A stretch of 64,000 bases of DNA from Candidatus Magasanikiibacteriota bacterium (GTDB taxonomy: Bacteria > Patescibacteriota > Patescibacteriia > Magasanikbacterales > GWA2-37-8): positions 384,875-448,874 of the forward strand of contig CAWJAS010000001.1 in NCBI GenBank assembly GCA_963840935.1, given 5' to 3'. The position numbers and the translations under genes were made by a program. Of the stretch, positions 4,921 through 64,000 are shown in pieces; position 1 is the first letter of the stretch, and every line of letters begins with the position of its first letter. Below the pieces are notes generated by a model that did no database searches, was not told the origin of the DNA, and saw only the letters and a program-made list of their open reading frames with translations.

Positions 4921-6456
4921 TTAAGCGACGACTTCTCCGCCAAATTGAGCCGCGAGTATTGTTAAATCACTGTCATTTTTTGCGTTTGATTCTGTGTTTT
5001 CATTTACAACGCATTTTAAAATCACTTTTACGCCAAGTAGTTCACCAAAAACTTCTTCAATTTTGATTTTACATTTAATATCCTCAATCTTTTCTTTATG
5101 AAAAGAGTAGGGGAGAGAAATGATAATTTCGTTATTATTAATTTCTTTTATCTCCGCCATTTTTAGCACAAAAATAAGCGATGGAAAAACGTCGGCAAGC
5201 CGAGTAATCATTTCCGGCCATTTTTCGCGGACGGTTTCTATTTTTAAATCGTTTGTGGATTGAGTGTTAGTTATTTCTTGTTTTTTTTCTTCCTTTACCT
5301 CAGTTTTTTTTGGCGGTTGTTTGTTTTCTTTTTCGTCGTCTTTATTATTGTTTTTTGGATTGTCATTCGTGATTTGTTCAGAAAATTGAACAGCCAATAA
5401 TTCAAGAGGTAATTGCGGTACGGGAGCCAATTTCATTTCCGATTTTCTTTCGATTGCCGAGCCGATAATTTTTATTAGTTTTTCATTGCCGAATTTAACA
5501 GCGAGTTCTTTAATGGATTTCCTGTCTTTTTCCGCGTATTCCGGACCGTACGAGGCATAACCGGATAAAGATATCATACCCGCTCGCAACACTTCAATTA
5601 TTTCCAAAGCGAATTGTTCCAGATTCGAACCGTTTTTGATTAAGTTATCAATCGTTAACAATGCGTCGTCGGTGTGGCCGTCGGCAATGGCTGATAAAAA
5701 ATTAAGCACTTCCTCGATATCGGAAGACGGCAAAATCAATTCCGCGTCGGCTGTTGTAATTTTTTTTAAATTAAGCGATAAAATTTGCCCGAGTAGGCTT
5801 TCGGCGTCGCGCATGCATCCGTCGCTTTTGATGATTATTTTTTTTAATACATCTTTTTCAACTTTTATATTTTCATTCTCGGCGATCGCTTCAAGTTTTT
5901 TTATCATTATATCTTCCGGAATTTTTTTGAAATTAAATCTTTGGCATCTGGAGATTATAGTCATCGGTAGTTTTCGAAGTTCGGTTGTGGCTAAAATAAA
6001 AACCACATGACTGGGCGGTTCCTCCAAGGTTTTTAAAAGCGCGTTGAAAGCGCTGGTTGAAAGCATGTGTACCTCGTCAATGATAAATACTTTGTATTTG
6101 GATTTTGTTGGTTTAAACTGCGCGTTGTCAATAATATTTTCACGAACATTATCAACACCGGTGTTTGAAGCGGCATCAATTTCAATCACGTCGATGTTGC
6201 GCGAAGAAGCGATTTCCGAACATGAAGAGCATTCGTTACATGGTTCAAAATCTCCGGGTTTTCTGTTTTGGCAATTGACCGCTTTGGCCAATAGACGCGC
6301 CATGGTTGTTTTGCCGGTGCCTCGAGGACCGGAAAACAAATAGGCATGAGCTATTTTTTCATCGCTTATTTCATTAACAAGCGTTTGAACCAAATGTTCT
6401 TGGCCGATAAGGTCGGAAAATTTTTGTGGACGGTATTTTCTGTATAGAGTTGACAT
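4921..6456 (-). CDS. dnaX: DNA polymerase III subunit gamma/tau
   Basis: YRKYRPQKFSDLIGQEH, GPRGTGKTT Walker A, CNECSSC zinc module, clamp-loader box. Confidence 0.95.
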   Translation of the reverse strand: MSTLYRKYRPQKFSDLIGQEHLVQTLVNEISDEKIAHAYLFSGPRGTGKTTMARLLAKAVNCQNRKPGDFEPCNECSSCSEIASSRNIDVIEIDAASNTGVDNVRENIIDNAQFKPTKSKYKVFIIDEVHMLSTSAFNALLKTLEEPPSHVVFILATTELRKLPMTIISRCQRFNFKKIPEDIMIKKLEAIAENENIKVEKDVLKKIIIKSDGCMRDAESLLGQILSLNLKKITTADAELILPSSDIEEVLNFLSAIADGHTDDALLTIDNLIKNGSNLEQFALEIIEVLRAGMISLSGYASYGPEYAEKDRKSIKELAVKFGNEKLIKIIGSAIERKSEMKLAPVPQLPLELLAVQFSEQITNDNPKNNNKDDEKENKQPPKKTEVKEEKKQEITNTQSTNDLKIETVREKWPEMITRLADVFPSLIFVLKMAEIKEINNNEIIISLPYSFHKEKIEDIKCKIKIEEVFGELLGVKVILKCVVNENTESNAKNDSDLTILAAQFGGEVVA

Positions 6457-26019: not shown

Positions 26020-26092
26020 GCCGCCTTAGCTCAGCTGGCAGAGCAACACTTTTGTAAAGTGAAGGTCCTCGGTTCGAGTCCGAGAGGCGGCT
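26020..26092 (+). tRNA. tRNA-Thr (anticodon TGT)
   Basis: Manual fold: acceptor GCCGCCT/AGGCGGC, anticodon loop TTTGTAA, T-arm CTCGGTTCGAGTCCGAG; the first anticodon-stem pair is an A:A mismatch. Confidence 0.7.
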
Positions 26093-26105
26093 CGGATCGA
26101 AAAAT

Positions 26106-26400: not shown

Positions 26401-26424
26401 ACGCGGGCTTCGCCTGCGTTTTTG
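26401..26424 (+). terminator. Rho-independent terminator after rpmG
   Basis: ACGCGGG-CTTCG-CCTGCGT hairpin followed by TTTTT. Confidence 0.6.
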
Positions 26425-26426
26425 AT

Positions 26427-26484
26427 GGGGGGTTCGTATAGTGGTATAAACCCGTCGCTCGCGAGCGACGGGTGTCTCCAAAAC
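26427..26484 (+). pseudogene. Truncated, diverged copy of the tRNA-Trp 5' part (acceptor, D-arm, anticodon loop) with a 22-nt GC palindrome replacing the 5' strand of the anticodon stem
   Basis: GGGGGGTTCGTATAGTGGTATAA aligns 17/23 to GGGAGCTTAGTTAAGTGGTATAA of the intact tRNA-Trp; GTCTCCAAAAC is identical (11 nt); CCCGTCGCTCGCGAGCGACGGG inserted between them; no T-arm. Confidence 0.55.
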
Positions 26485-26496
26485 AATCCAAATAGT

Positions 26497-26748
26497 ATGC
26501 ATTATGTGTATTTATTAAGAATAAGTGGAATAAAAAATAAAAATTATTATATTGGTTATACTTCTGATTTAAGAAAAAGAATGTTTGAACATTTGTCTGG
26601 CAACACAAAAACAACTTGCGATCGCAAACCGCAGTTATTATATTATGAAGCTTTTAGTGATAAAATATTAGCAATTAGACGTGAAAGAGGTTTAAAAAAT
26701 AGCGGGTCAGTGTATAATGCATTATTAAAAAGATTAGGGTTAAAGTAA
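26497..26748 (+). CDS. Mini GIY-YIG nuclease, UPF0213/YhbQ-like (copy 1 of 3)
   Basis: Start moved to ATG 26497; HYVYLLRISGIKNKNYYIGYTSDLRKRMFEHLSG is the GIY-(10)-YIG block with R and E/H catalytic residues; the track ORF's longer N-terminus overlaps the tRNA-like fragment. Confidence 0.75.
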   Translation: MHYVYLLRISGIKNKNYYIGYTSDLRKRMFEHLSGNTKTTCDRKPQLLYYEAFSDKILAIRRERGLKNSGSVYNALLKRLGLK

Positions 26749-26754
26749 TAATAC

Positions 26755-26825
26755 GGGAGCTTAGTTAAGTGGTATAACTACGGTCTCCAAAACCGTTGTC
26801 GGGGGTTCGATTCCCTCAGCTCCTG
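26755..26825 (+). tRNA. tRNA-Trp (anticodon CCA)
   Basis: Acceptor GGGAGCT/AGCTCCT, D-arm GTTAAGTGGTATAAC, anticodon stem ACGGT/ACCGT with loop CTCCAAA, T-arm GGGGGTTCGATTCCCTC. Confidence 0.85.
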
Positions 26826-26837
26826 CAAAAACAAAAA

Positions 26838-42686: not shown

Positions 42687-43301
42687 ATGCTTGTTTTTAT
42701 TGACGACTCTGGCGATCCGGGCTTTAAATTAAACAAAGGTTCCACCAGATATTTTCTAATCGCTCTCGTAATTTTTGAAGATGAATTAGAGGCGGAAAAA
42801 ACAGCAGTCGCGATTAAGGAGCTTAAAAGGGGATTAAAATTTCCTGATGATATGGAATTTAAATTTTTTAAATCAAGCAAAGATGTCAGAATGAAATTTT
42901 TATCGACAGTAAAAAAGTTTAATTTTTATTATAGATGCTTGGCGATAGATAAGATGGTAATTAAAAGCGATGAATTAAAAAATAACAAAAGCTCATTTTA
43001 CAGTTATGCTATTAAAACCGTATTAAAGCATAGTAATGCCATTAATAACGCCAAGGTCAAAATTGATGGAAGCGGAGACAGGGTTTTCCGAAAAAATTTT
43101 TTGGCATATTTAAAAAAACAATTAAACAGTGGAGATAAAAAAATAATTAAAAATTGTAAATTGGTCGATTCAAAAGGCAATCAACTTATCCAATTGGCTG
43201 ATATGATTGCTGGTAGTGTTCGGCGGTCTTTTGAAGCGAATGATTATATTTATAGGAATCTTATAAAAAATAAGGAGAATGATGTTTGGAATTTTAAATA
43301 A
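42687..43301 (+). CDS. DUF3800 family protein
   Basis: N-terminal MLVFIDDSGDPG and C-terminal QLADMIAG are the hallmark DUF3800 segments. Confidence 0.7.
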   Translation: MLVFIDDSGDPGFKLNKGSTRYFLIALVIFEDELEAEKTAVAIKELKRGLKFPDDMEFKFFKSSKDVRMKFLSTVKKFNFYYRCLAIDKMVIKSDELKNNKSSFYSYAIKTVLKHSNAINNAKVKIDGSGDRVFRKNFLAYLKKQLNSGDKKIIKNCKLVDSKGNQLIQLADMIAGSVRRSFEANDYIYRNLIKNKENDVWNFK

Positions 43302-43478
43302 AAAACAACCCCTTACGGGGTGTTTCCAACCATGCATTCTATACTGGTTGTCCCAGTCACGCCACCGTCCGGTGACAGTTCGATATGCAGGTTTAGGTAT
43401 TTCCATTATAGCATAAAACTCGTAAAATTGGAATAGGTTTGTGTGTATAACTATATATTTATTTAATTTTAGCCAAAA

Positions 43479-48412: not shown

Positions 48413-48658
48413 ATGTATTATTTGTATATTGTTGAATGCGCCGATAAAACGTTATATACTGGAGTTACGGTTGATGTGGAAAGGCGCGTGCGCGAACATA
48501 ATAATTTGAAGCTTGGCGCAAAATACACACGCGCTCGACGGCCGGTGAAATTGGTTTACGTGAAAAAGTTTCGTAATCGCTCGCTTGCTTCCAAAGCCGA
48601 GTGCAAAATAAAAAATTTATCGCGCGAAGAGAAGTTGAAGATGATTAAAAATATTTAA
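48413..48658 (+). CDS. Mini GIY-YIG nuclease, UPF0213/YhbQ-like (copy 2 of 3; free-standing)
   Basis: YYLYIVECADKTLYTGVTVDVERRVREHN is the GIY...YTG...R...EH core; 81 aa. Confidence 0.8.
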   Translation: MYYLYIVECADKTLYTGVTVDVERRVREHNNLKLGAKYTRARRPVKLVYVKKFRNRSLASKAECKIKNLSREEKLKMIKNI

Positions 48659-61443: not shown

Positions 61444-62793
61444 ATGAAAGATTCAAATAAAAAAATTGAAGAAGAAAACCTTGGCTCATCGGAAGCGCCT
61501 TTGATTACGGCCGGTGCCATGGTTGATTATCGTGAATCATGGAGAGTGTTCAAAATAATGTCCGAATTTGTGGAAGGTTATCATTTTTTGGGTGAATTAA
61601 AAAACGAAGTGACTATTTTGGGTTCCGCCAGATTGGCGCCAAACAATAAATATTACAAAATTGCCGTTGATTTAGGGCGTTTACTTGGTAAAAACGGTTT
61701 TACCACCATAACGGGCGGAGGCCCCGGAATTATGGAAGCGGCAAATCGCGGTGCTTATGAAGTCGGCGGTGAATTGGTTGGAATCAATATTCAATTGCCG
61801 TTTGAACAACGCATCAACCCTTATGTAAAAAAATCAGTTGCTTTTTATTATTTTTTCACTCGCAAGGTAATGTTGACGGCGCCGGCTAACGCGTTTGTCT
61901 TTTTTCCCGGTGGTTTTGGTACTTTAGATGAATTTTTTGAAGTCGTTGATTTGATAGAACAAGGATATTTGCCTGATTCGCCGATTATATTGGTGGGTTC
62001 GGAATTTTGGCAACCGGTTTTGAATTTTTTGAAGGACAAATCATTAAAAATGATCAATGCGATTTCCGAAGAGAATATGGCAAATTGGTATTTGGTTGAT
62101 ACCGCGGAAGACGCATTTGAGCACATAAAAGACACGGCCGACCGTCCGAATACCTATAGTCCGGCTTTGGGTCCGGATCAATCTCGCGAGGCCGAGTGGA
62201 GAATATTTCGAATAATGTCCGAGTTGGTTGAAGGTTTTGATTTTTTGAGTGGATTAAAAAATAATATCAGTGTTTTGGGAACAAAAAGCATCACCTCAAA
62301 ATCAAAGTATTACGAAGTTGCTTTAGAAATGGGACGCCATTTTGCCAAAGCGGGGTATTCCGTAGCGACCGGCGGGGGGCCGGGCATCATGGAAGCGGCA
62401 AATCGCGGAGCTTATGAAGCCGGTGGCGAGAGTATCGGGATAAATATGCATGTCAGCGGTCTTGAGAGAAGAAATAAATATTTAACGTCCTCGGCCAGTT
62501 TTTCTTATCCTTTTGTTAGAAAATTAATTATCACCACTCCGTCAAACGGTTTTATATTTTTTCCGGGAGGATTTGGAACTTTGCATCAACTTTTTGAATT
62601 ATTAACATTGGTAGAAACGGGTAAAATCAAAAAGATTCCCTTGTGTTTATATGACAGTGATTTTTGGAAGCCACTTCAAGATTTAATAAATAAAATGTTT
62701 GTTGATTTTCACACAATTAGCACCGGAGACAGGGATTTGTGCAAGATTGTAGAAAATATCGAGGAGGCATATAACTGTTTTGATTCCAAATGA
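61444..62793 (+). CDS. Tandem fusion of two LOG-family (TIGR00730, cytokinin riboside 5'-monophosphate phosphoribohydrolase-like) domains
   Basis: Two copies of GGGPGIMEAANRGAYE...PGGFGTL(D/H)E; start set to ATG 61444 to avoid overlap with gatA. Confidence 0.8.
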   Translation: MKDSNKKIEEENLGSSEAPLITAGAMVDYRESWRVFKIMSEFVEGYHFLGELKNEVTILGSARLAPNNKYYKIAVDLGRLLGKNGFTTITGGGPGIMEAANRGAYEVGGELVGINIQLPFEQRINPYVKKSVAFYYFFTRKVMLTAPANAFVFFPGGFGTLDEFFEVVDLIEQGYLPDSPIILVGSEFWQPVLNFLKDKSLKMINAISEENMANWYLVDTAEDAFEHIKDTADRPNTYSPALGPDQSREAEWRIFRIMSELVEGFDFLSGLKNNISVLGTKSITSKSKYYEVALEMGRHFAKAGYSVATGGGPGIMEAANRGAYEAGGESIGINMHVSGLERRNKYLTSSASFSYPFVRKLIITTPSNGFIFFPGGFGTLHQLFELLTLVETGKIKKIPLCLYDSDFWKPLQDLINKMFVDFHTISTGDRDLCKIVENIEEAYNCFDSK

Positions 62794-63566
62794 TACCTTA
62801 TTTTTCTTGGCAAACAATAAGTTTGGGCCCGTTGACTTTTCAAGTTTGGGGTATTTTTGTTTCGCTCGGTTTTTTGGTTGCTTTGCTTTTGGGATTGCAT
62901 TTTGTGAAAAAAAGAAATTTAGATAAAGAAATTTTGACTGATTTATTTATTTGGCTATTACTTGGCGGGATATTGATGGCGAGAGTTTTCCATATTATTT
63001 TTTACGAACCCGCTTATTATATTAATTATCCTTCGGAAATTTTGAAATTTTGGAATGGCGGAGCCTCGTCGCTCGGTGGGCTTGTCGGCGCTTTTGCCGC
63101 GCTGTTGATTTATGCCAGAGTAAAAAAATTTAGTTTTAGAGAGTTTTTGCCATATGGCGATATTATCGGCCTTGTTTTTTGGCTCGGTTGGGGAATAGGC
63201 AGGATTGGTTGTTTTTTTATTCACGATCACCCCGGCAGATTAACTGACTTTTTTTTGGCGGTTAATTTTCCGTCAGGCGCGCGGTTTGATATGGGACTTA
63301 TGGAATCAATTCTTTCTTTTGCTATTTTTGCCGTTGTTTATGTTTTGTATAAAAAAATTCATAATACAATACCGGGAATGTCATTGCTTGCCGGTTTTTG
63401 GATATATTTTGCGGTTCGGTTTTTTATGGATTTTTTGCGCGCTGATGATTTGACTATGGCTGACGCGAGATATTTTTATTTAACCCCGGCGCAATGGGGG
63501 ATGGGAATATTATTTTTTACGTTGACGGCGTTGTATTTGCGTGTTAGAATGCGACAGCAAAATTAA
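62790..63566 (+). CDS. lgt: Prolipoprotein diacylglyceryl transferase
   Basis: Seven-TM profile; Lgt signature GRIGCFFIHDHPG and G-rich loop GGASSLGGLVGA. Confidence 0.85.
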   Translation: MIPYFSWQTISLGPLTFQVWGIFVSLGFLVALLLGLHFVKKRNLDKEILTDLFIWLLLGGILMARVFHIIFYEPAYYINYPSEILKFWNGGASSLGGLVGAFAALLIYARVKKFSFREFLPYGDIIGLVFWLGWGIGRIGCFFIHDHPGRLTDFFLAVNFPSGARFDMGLMESILSFAIFAVVYVLYKKIHNTIPGMSLLAGFWIYFAVRFFMDFLRADDLTMADARYFYLTPAQWGMGILFFTLTALYLRVRMRQQN

Positions 63567-63602
63567 CCCTGGAGGGTTCGCCTAGTGGTCGATGGCGCAC
63601 GT
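63559..63602 (+). repeat. Direct repeat copy 1 (44 bp: 12 bp upstream + first 31-32 nt of tRNA-Ser), identical to 63900-63943
   Basis: AAAATTAACCCTGGAGGGTTCGCCTAGTGGTCGATGGCGCACG read at both positions. Confidence 0.85.
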
Positions 63603-63659
63603 CCCGAAGGGACCCCCTTGGGGTCCCGAAGGGATCCCTTCGGGACTTGGAAAGCTTGT
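63571..63659 (+). pseudogene. Truncated tRNA-Ser copy (acceptor, D-arm, anticodon arm, start of variable arm) with a 45-nt GC-rich insert (63602-63646, including the perfect 24-nt palindrome GTCCCGAAGGGATCCCTTCGGGAC) in the 5' strand of the anticodon stem; no T-arm
   Basis: After the insert, CTTGGAAAGCTTGTAT matches the intact tRNA's CTTGGAAAGCGTGTAT; the sequence then diverges into the GIY-YIG ORF, whose ATG (63660) lies where the variable arm would be. Confidence 0.6.
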
Positions 63660-63926
63660 ATGAAATTTTATTTGTATATAATATTTAGTCAAAGCGCCAA
63701 TCGATGGTATGTTGGCTCATCGAATAATATACAAGATAGGTTAAGACGTCATAATTCCGGTAGTAGTAAATCAACAAAACCGTATTGCCCATGGGTACTG
63801 GCTTATTTTGAAGAGTACAATACTCGTTCTGAGGCCGTAAGAAGAGAATATTATTTAAAATCAACAAAAGGATATAAGGATTTATTAGAAATTAAATATA
63901 AAATTAACCCTGGAGGGTTCGCCTAG
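63660..63926 (+). CDS. Mini GIY-YIG nuclease, UPF0213/YhbQ-like (copy 3 of 3)
   Basis: Start set to ATG 63660: MKFYLYIIFSQSANRWYVGSSNNIQDRLRRHNSG has the GIY-YIG core; the stop codon TAG lies inside the D-arm of the downstream intact tRNA-Ser. Confidence 0.7.
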   Translation: MKFYLYIIFSQSANRWYVGSSNNIQDRLRRHNSGSSKSTKPYCPWVLAYFEEYNTRSEAVRREYYLKSTKGYKDLLEIKYKINPGGFA

Positions 63927-63996
63927 TGGTCGATGGCGCACGCTTGGAAAGCGTGTATACCGAAAGGTATCGAGAGTTCGAATCTCTCACCCTCCG
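63912..63996 (+). tRNA. tRNA-Ser (anticodon GGA), class II
   Basis: Acceptor GGAGGGT/ACCCTCC, anticodon stem CACGC/GCGTG with loop TTGGAAA, 16-nt variable arm TATACCGAAAGGTATC, T-arm GAGAGTTCGAATCTCTC. Confidence 0.85.
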
Positions 63997-64000
63997 CTTA

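Follow-up and report, generated by a model that had tools for sequence, protein, structure and literature searches.

GIY-YIG nuclease genes have been found beside tRNA genes before: the segB gene of phage T4 lies in the T4 tRNA gene cluster (PMC2330249). A large family of small stand-alone GIY-YIG proteins (UPF0213/YhbQ-like, such as 1zg2 BH0048 and 1ywl EF2693) is without assigned function, and no linkage to tRNA genes is reported for it in the literature that we searched. In fungal mitochondria, mobile endonuclease open reading frames (ORFs) insert in a gene, bring a duplicate of the gene end and leave a remnant behind, and the mitochondrial DNA of Allomyces has G+C-rich double-hairpin elements that are dispersed genome-wide. 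Here we analyse a 64,000-nt stretch (the window) of contig CAWJAS010000001.1 from a Candidatus Magasanikiibacteriota bacterium, in which an 88-amino-acid GIY-YIG ORF lies between a truncated, hairpin-bearing copy of tRNA-Ser(GGA) and the intact tRNA gene. With a probability of roughly 0.55, we read this unit as a compact selfish cassette that resembles homing-endonuclease genes and colonises tRNA genes, with tRNA-derived homology as the basis of recombination. A full-text literature search returned no description of tRNA-linked mini GIY-YIG cassettes, with most subscription journals outside its coverage and a prior description possible; the class is apparently undescribed.

The cassette is delimited by an exact 43-nt direct repeat (63559–63601 and 63900–63942; spacing, 341 nt; forward strand, as for all features of the locus) detected by a repeat finder in the 64-kb window, where about 1e-17 such pairs would be expected by chance. 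An earlier note on this DNA had given the repeat as 44 bp at the same two places; the repeat itself is real and its length is 43 nt. It consists of a 12-nt leader (AAAATTAACCCT) and positions 1–31 of tRNA-Ser(GGA) (63571–63601 in the first copy). The 341-bp unit contains, in order, the truncated 5′ copy of the tRNA, a 44-nt G+C-rich insert, an anticodon-loop piece and the GIY-YIG ORF. The insert (63602–63645; 45 nt if the ambiguous C31 is counted) stands between tRNA positions 30 and 31, has a G+C content of 70% (39% for the window), is made up of four 11-nt mini hairpins that form two double-hairpin units (TCCCGAAGGGA CCCCCTTGGGG TCCCGAAGGGA TCCCTTCGGGA) and includes a perfect 24-nt palindrome (63623–63646). 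Past the insert, CTTGGAAAGCTTGTAT (63646–63661) represents the anticodon loop and the 3′ strand of the anticodon stem (15/16 positions matching the intact tRNA, 94%) and runs into the start codon of the ORF (63660–63926; PF01541, E = 1.6e-18). The second repeat copy is made of a leader borne by the ORF and positions 1–31 of the intact tRNA, so that the last five codons and the stop codon of the ORF come from tRNA positions 1–15, the TAG (63924–63926) being positions 13–15 in the D-loop. ARAGORN and Infernal (Rfam RF00005) found a single intact tRNA-Ser(GGA) at 63912–63997 (55.3 bits; Rfam end at 63996), which is the functional copy and now lies 341 nt farther from the promoter. The upstream copy (63571–63661) was called by neither program, even at E ≤ 10, and is not a tRNA. 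The insert with its palindrome, the anticodon piece with one mismatch that opens into the ORF and the stop codon in the D-arm of the intact tRNA are all as the earlier note had described them. Public annotation gives a 113-amino-acid product (P0001; 63585–63926) with a GTG start within the D-loop of the remnant, the frame being open across the insert; the alignment of homologues indicates the ATG at 63660 as the true start.

Upstream of the cassette lies lgt (62790–63566; prolipoprotein diacylglyceryl transferase; PF01790, E = 6.6e-39), a conserved neighbour whose last 8 nt fall within the first repeat copy. With lgt as bait, 53 related metagenome loci were fetched (loci are denoted by L and a number). 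The order lgt–tRNA-Ser(GGA) is kept in at least 25 related contigs, and in about 14 relatives the intact tRNA-Ser(GGA) begins 3–150 nt after the lgt stop codon with neither ORF nor remnant (L084, L086, L087, L090–L093, L095, L096, L098, L099, L101, L102 and L114). Six junctions are filled (the window, L137, L083/L001, L002 and L085/L089), L002 by two cassettes in tandem. The closest relative of the window is L137, with amino acid identities of 72% for Lgt and 78% for the GIY-YIG protein. The filled junctions belong to three lineages and are occupied by two different GIY-YIG lineages with different junctions (anticodon stem versus D-loop): L085/L089 carry a GIY-YIG lineage different from that of the window, with the double hairpin in the D-loop of the remnant instead of the anticodon stem, and L003 has double hairpins at both positions. 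The earlier note had held that mobility would fail if the identical arrangement were fixed in all relatives; given the empty junctions, the arrangement is, on comparison of these contigs, an insertion and not a fixed syntenic feature. Presence/absence polymorphism of the homing type is found at this conserved site, though only between distant relatives.

The cassette class is widespread. Our scan took a single genome from each GTDB species and used two peptide motifs (SKSTK..W and E.Y.TRSEAV), which are internal to the protein and therefore introduce no bias toward tRNAs. The scan yielded 106 relatives, and the 80 loci kept came from Patescibacteria, Ignavibacteriota/Chlorobiota, Bacteroidota, Acidobacteriota, Planctomycetota, Nitrospirota and Verrucomicrobiota, with carriers in culture (Pontibacter flavimaris S10-8 and Mucilaginibacter sp. 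OK268). Fifty-four of the 80 loci have a bona fide tRNA gene at most 60 nt from the ORF, always on the same strand as the ORF (62 pairs, against 0 on opposite strands; background tRNA density, 0.034 per kb), and most of the remaining loci are at contig ends or are flanked by tRNA-like copies. In most loci, the ORF is flanked by tRNA-derived direct repeats, which occur in two mirror layouts. In the layout of the window, the ORF is preceded by a 5′ fragment of the tRNA and followed by the intact tRNA, and in about 60% of cases its stop codon lies 15–44 nt inside that tRNA (Ser, Pro, Gln, Met and Cys). In the mirror layout, which is typical for tRNA-Ala(GGC) of Bacteroidota and Acidobacteriota, the intact tRNA lies upstream and the ORF runs into a second tRNA-like copy, again ending at a D-loop TAG; the variable loop, T arm, 3′ end and sometimes the flank of this copy are identical to the real tRNA, and a hairpin stands exactly in place of the anticodon arm. 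L010 and L016 have cassettes on both sides of one tRNA. Units are 290–365 nt long, and arrays of 100%-identical units (L022, L041, L045 and L061) indicate recent amplification, whereas ORFs that reside at one tRNA with only 54–67% identity (L010, L016, L048 and L051) point to independent arrivals. Truncated, decayed ORFs are present in L006, L012, L026, L034 and L079. Protein clusters formed at ≥60% identity include members from both layouts and from tRNAs for Ser, Pro, Ala and Asp (single-linkage clusters, in which chaining is possible).

Several observations concern the handling of these loci in sequence collections. In many metagenome-assembled genomes, the contig starts no more than a few hundred bases 5′ of the GIY-YIG ORF, as in L004, L007, L008, L018, L020, L025, L031, L033, L035, L042, L052, L070 and L072–L076; tRNA-derived repeats and tandem units may break short-read assemblies near the ORF. 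ARAGORN labels hairpin-substituted copies as ‘tRNA-Ile(GAT)’ or ‘tRNA-Stop(TTA)’ or gives them a four-base anticodon (agca), as in L063 (2894–2970 and 3226–3300), L018 and L041 (2886–2961 and 3432–3507), and several such copies exceed the Rfam tRNA threshold (L004, L028 and L045). The viral and plasmid collections gave one viral contig (L136), three weak phage matches and one plasmid yazA match, and otherwise none. In L136 (IMG/VR; 1895–1970 and 2240–2400), the sole match in the viral collection, tRNA-Ala(GGC) lies on the opposite strand upstream of the ORF, and the ORF is followed by two tRNA-like copies; in each of them, a TCCCG..CGGGA hairpin replaces the anticodon arm and a second hairpin of this kind lies in the T-loop.

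The Ser-locus protein matches PF01541 over residues 2–71 of 88 (67.2 bits against a cut-off of 22.6 bits), with Y17, G19, R27, H31 and E63 invariant and Y6 nearly invariant among 14 homologues. A search of the ORF against Pfam gave no further domain, leaving the catalytic domain alone in place of the homing-endonuclease architecture of a catalytic and a C-terminal DNA-binding domain. The group I intron endonuclease model TIGR01453 reaches 24.7 bits (cut-off, 56.05 bits) and covers only the first ~36 residues. The nearest PDB entries are the UPF0213 proteins 1zg2 (E = 4e-5) and 1ywl (E = 1.3e-4), to which the protein is similar over residues 1–72, and the tRNA-linked subgroup carries a signature of its own (RHNxGxSKSTKxxxPW). 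The original proposal of a tRNA-targeting, homing-endonuclease-like cassette is thus upheld by the insertion and by its recurrence at many tRNAs and phyla, but not by the architecture of the protein. The proportions of nonsynonymous and synonymous differences between the window and L137 ORFs (pN, 0.11; pS, 0.72) and between the two ORFs of L002 (pN, 0.10; pS, 0.55) show strong purifying selection on the ORF of the Ser cassette. The PADLOC defence models matched none of the three GIY-YIG ORFs of the window at E ≤ 1e-3. One of these three (48413–48658, forward strand; 81 amino acids) is a stand-alone YhbQ-like ORF that provides an internal contrast to the two tRNA-linked cassettes: no tRNA, tRNA remnant or TCCC..GGGA hairpin was found near it.

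The second cassette lies at tRNA-Trp, where the earlier note had reported the same layout and where we found it on the forward strand (26420–26826). Its upstream part (26420–26496) comprises the leader TTTTGAT, a 5′ remnant of tRNA-Trp (from ~26427), a 24-nt hairpin (ACCCGTCGCTCGCGAGCGACGGGT; 26450–26473) and an anticodon-loop piece, and is followed by an 83-amino-acid GIY-YIG ORF (26497–26748; PF01541, E = 2.1e-12, 47.6 bits; 32% identical to the Ser-locus ORF) and, 6 nt farther 3′, by an intact tRNA-Trp(CCA) called by ARAGORN and Infernal (26755–26826). In L138, the Trp remnant repeats 30 nt of the resident tRNA-Trp exactly. The remnant in the window is not an exact repeat of its resident tRNA: it preserves the L138-type allele, and the resident tRNA-Trp of the window is a different allele. 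Identities between the window and L138 are 100% for the hairpin, 93% for the Trp remnant, 91% for rpmG, 86% for the ORF and 78% for the resident tRNA-Trp. Homologues of the Trp-family ORF always lie between rpmG and tRNA-Trp, and the family has a different palindrome (GTCGCTCGCGAGCGAC) that accompanies the ORF even without a tRNA remnant (L143–L147). The window and L138, which are close relatives, share 81% nucleotide identity overall and an identical (100%) tRNA-Tyr; tRNA-Thr(TGT) (26020–26093 in the window) is 81% and tRNA-Trp 78% identical, with compensatory changes in the stems, which suggests allele replacement of single tRNA genes. We considered the divergent resident tRNA-Trp as an ‘escape’ allele, but no conclusion can be drawn from the difference because tRNA-Thr(TGT) differs equally between the same two genomes.

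The insert at the Ser locus consists of two copies of a 22-nt double mini-hairpin. Among 11 Ser/Pro units, its two 4-bp stems are paired in 100% of alignment cells, with compensatory changes at 4/8 pairs (a level reached by 0/500 shuffles). As one long hairpin or palindrome, the insert showed 0 compensatory pairs and did no better than shuffles; thermodynamic folding of the window insert prefers this long hairpin, with a z-score of only −1.7. Beyond these units, a TCCC...GGGA hairpin adjoins the ORF in 52 of the 80 loci, 17 times denser than in the flanks. In the tRNA copy that is not functional, it breaks up the anticodon arm or takes its place; in window-type layouts it directly precedes the anticodon loop that has been kept. 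At the base of the stem the sequence itself (TCCCG/CGGGA) is conserved, whereas the inner stem and the loop differ in length between loci and the inner pairs covary (for example, GAA..TTC, GGT..ACC, GAT..ATC and GTCAGC..GCTGAC). What had at first been taken for a local oddity of an AT-rich genome is instead a conserved, covarying motif that marks the whole class. The insert was also considered as a dispersed repeat similar to miniature inverted-repeat transposable elements or repetitive extragenic palindromic (REP) sequences, and this was rejected: TCCCGAAGGGA occurs in the 64-kb window only inside the cassette. Rfam searches of the remnant and hairpin gave only chance microRNA-like matches far below threshold, and those of 12 related loci gave tRNA matches alone.

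The variable length of the stem speaks against the binding of a protein dimer to a double-stranded site and for a folded strand, DNA or RNA. Such a strand is central to a different explanation, in which the GIY-YIG protein recognises TCCCG...CGGGA as folded single-stranded DNA, a cruciform or RNA and acts beside it, or uses the adjacent tRNA-matching segment as a programmable guide. The enzymes of IS200/IS605 and of REP-associated tyrosine transposases act next to their hairpins, and here the density of the hairpin beside the ORF, the conserved stem base with compensatory changes farther in, the tRNA-identical segment found in every case directly beside the hairpin (5′ of it in one layout, 3′ in the other) and the service of several tRNAs by one protein lineage would all fit. 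We nevertheless consider it unlikely: binding and cleavage remain putative, the Trp remnant of the window mismatches its resident tRNA while the ORF is intact, some cassettes (L140) bear an unrelated AT-rich palindrome instead, and we know of no precedent for guided targeting by a domain of 88 amino acids. Highly improbable is its most specific form, in which the hairpin would be a handle for the protein, the abutting tRNA-matching segment (as RNA or folded single-stranded DNA) a guide and the 80–90-amino-acid domain a minimal guided or hairpin-directed nuclease with its target set by the tRNA fragment, although this would account for the association of one protein lineage with genes for four tRNAs (Ser, Pro, Ala and Asp) in either polarity.

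The same comparative data bear on a purely passive origin, by which tRNA genes would have been duplicated in tandem and decayed around an unrelated small ORF, the G+C-rich hairpin being a terminator or a chance palindrome. tRNA genes are prone to duplication, and the identical array units are what such a process would leave. We find this hardly credible, however, given that the same ORF family, polarity, hairpin motif and tRNA position recur across phyla and tRNA types, that no T-run follows the hairpins in the window, that the stems covary and that the ORF is under purifying selection.

Two further observations concern hairpins and structured RNAs outside the cassettes. L015 has an isolated double mini-hairpin (TCCCGAAGGGATCCCTTTGGGA; 5102–5123) approximately 1.8 kb downstream of its cassette and with no GIY-YIG ORF beside it, which may be the relic of a lost cassette or an independent insertion. 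The window also contains a DUF3800-IX RNA (43324–43393, reverse strand; 46.3 bits, above the Rfam gathering score), located 23 nt downstream of a DUF3800-like ORF of 204 amino acids on the opposite strand (42687–43301, forward; beginning MLVFIDDSGDPGF), and thus another pairing of a small ORF and a structured RNA in the same genome.

A promoter-like site (TTGACG-17-TAGAAT, TG-extended; 10/12 positions) in the 3′ end of lgt (63522–63550) is probably the native promoter of tRNA-Ser. A TAnAAT box precedes the tRNA of empty loci and the remnant of filled loci by 17–23 nt, and this equal spacing indicates that the remnant marks the former start of the tRNA. Given the position of the site 5′ of the remnant in both kinds of loci, the ORF of the Ser cassette is most likely transcribed as part of a pre-tRNA leader. 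Between the window and L137, identity is 31/31 in the remnant, 84% in the insert, 98% in the intact tRNA, 76% in lgt and 78% in the ORF. The ORF-proximal leader of L137 (AAAGTCAACCCT) differs from the leader of its remnant, so gene conversion, with the ORF-proximal copy as donor and the lgt end as recipient, is the best explanation for the additional 12-nt identity in the window.

These features are also those expected of a domesticated operon gene with a tRNA-derived leader, in which the protein would have a cellular role (for example, in DNA repair or the maintenance of tRNA loci), the remnant and hairpin would serve as a 5′ untranslated region or as a processing or stability element, and inheritance would be vertical, with no mobility at present. 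The earlier note had offered a related alternative, a conserved tRNA-like leader that regulates or processes the nuclease mRNA, and part of it holds: the promoter-like site lies 5′ of the remnant and would read through the cassette, and the remnant and hairpin are at least as conserved as the neighbouring coding sequence (93–100% against 76–91% for flanking coding sequence), even at the Trp locus, where the remnant mismatches the resident tRNA. Strict strand polarity, strong purifying selection with saturated synonymous sites between the window and L137, and the constant position of Trp-family ORFs at rpmG–tRNA-Trp point in the same direction. Against this stand the patchy distribution among relatives that share lgt–tRNA-Ser and the occupation of that one site by two unrelated cassette lineages, as well as the divergent ORFs that reside together at one tRNA, the arrays of identical units, the decayed copies and the presence of the same protein cluster at different tRNAs in both layouts. 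In the layout with an upstream tRNA, moreover, the hairpin lies 3′ of the ORF, which does not fit the role of a 5′ untranslated region. We therefore regard domestication as rather unlikely, although it has to be taken seriously.

A selfish cassette that colonises tRNA genes remains our preferred reading, and the following cycle is proposed for it. The cassette brings its own partial tRNA copy and one complete tRNA is therefore kept, downstream of the ORF in the window and upstream in many other phyla. The native tRNA promoter would transcribe the remnant, hairpins, ORF and tRNA as one precursor. Ribonuclease P (RNase P) cleaves pre-tRNAs at the mature 5′ end; as the stop codon lies within the tRNA, cleavage at 63911/63912 would cut the ORF from its last five codons and stop. 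The resulting ORF RNA, lacking a stop codon, would favour non-stop decay and keep the level of nuclease low. The small amount of nuclease made would nick or break tRNA-gene DNA, and the break would be repaired by recombination, with the tRNA-derived repeats on either side of the ORF as homology arms. Such repair would copy the cassette into unoccupied tRNA genes, enlarge arrays or restore lost copies. What we observe directly is how the locus is built, that the insertion is polymorphic and recurs, that the hairpin covaries, that the ORF is under purifying selection and where the promoter-like site lies; the nuclease activity, its target, the route of recombination and the role of the hairpin are inferred.

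Several points weigh against this cycle. The cassette is shared by the window and L137, whose lgt genes are 72% identical, and synonymous sites between the two are saturated; this implies long vertical retention under purifying selection, which one would not usually expect of a purely selfish homing gene once it is fixed. No closely related pair of empty and filled sites was found in this set (lgt identity of 50–64% between filled and empty lineages, and at most about 57–64% for the nearest empty sites); the relatives are all distant, and the polymorphism is therefore seen between genera and not within one population. The 88-amino-acid protein has no DNA-binding domain, and the complete neighbouring tRNA would keep any target internal to the tRNA, so that avoidance of self-cleavage is left unexplained. 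A hairpin conserved in sequence is not predicted by a simple homing model. Finally, as the family is essentially absent from the phage and plasmid collections, no transfer vehicle is known for it. Together, these points lend some weight to the domesticated-gene and hairpin-directed explanations.

If the preferred reading is correct, these cassettes (~300–350 bp) would rank, among self-contained mobile or selfish units of bacteria, with the smallest known, and would provide a concrete biological context for the large family of unassigned stand-alone GIY-YIG proteins (UPF0213-like). They would also represent a splicing-free way for a nuclease gene to inhabit an essential gene, by means of a spare segment and a hairpin-capped leftover copy. 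Independently of mechanism, hairpin-substituted copies are a source of spurious, odd tRNAs in annotations, and the cassettes shift tRNA genes hundreds of bases from their promoters. With a conserved hairpin next to a segment that matches the tRNA, a programmable mini-nuclease is conceivable, and the existence of cultured carriers makes the mechanism open to direct testing.

Compared with known systems, the cassette shares features with several and coincides with none. Like integrase-type tRNA islands and prophages, it is inserted in a tRNA gene, supplies a replacement tRNA segment and is bounded by tRNA-derived direct repeats. It duplicates the 5′ part of the tRNA, however, where islands usually duplicate the 3′ part, and it has an added hairpin in the remnant and forms tandem arrays with periods of 290–365 nt; an integrase island was rejected for the window locus because the 341-bp unit contains only the 88-amino-acid GIY-YIG ORF and no tyrosine or serine recombinase. 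Group I introns with GIY-YIG ORFs (I-TevI type) likewise tie a nuclease ORF to the anticodon region of a tRNA, but no Rfam intron model matched here at the gathering threshold or at E ≤ 10, the 341 bp are almost all ORF and a continuous tRNA follows, so that no splicing is needed. The fungal mitochondrial ORFs appear to resemble the cassette in that an endonuclease ORF rescues the gene that it interrupts by means of a duplicate segment, and the Allomyces elements in being short G+C-rich double hairpins in an AT-rich genome; both are organellar, with protein-coding targets, and the hairpin of the window, in contrast to the Allomyces elements, occurs only in the cassette, where its place in the tRNA is fixed. 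The UPF0213/YhbQ-like proteins have the same size and single-domain architecture. The Seg genes of T4-like phages share the GIY-YIG catalytic domain, a location among or next to tRNA genes, and presence/absence polymorphism; break repair that co-converts the flanks is the expected route of spread. Seg proteins and I-TevI, however, have 200–250 amino acids and a DNA-binding domain, whereas the 88-amino-acid ORF of the cassette has the catalytic domain only; and the cassette, in contrast to Seg genes, is chromosomal, essentially absent from phages and placed within the transcription unit of the tRNA, and its duplicated tRNA segment and its conserved hairpin have no described counterpart in Seg genes.

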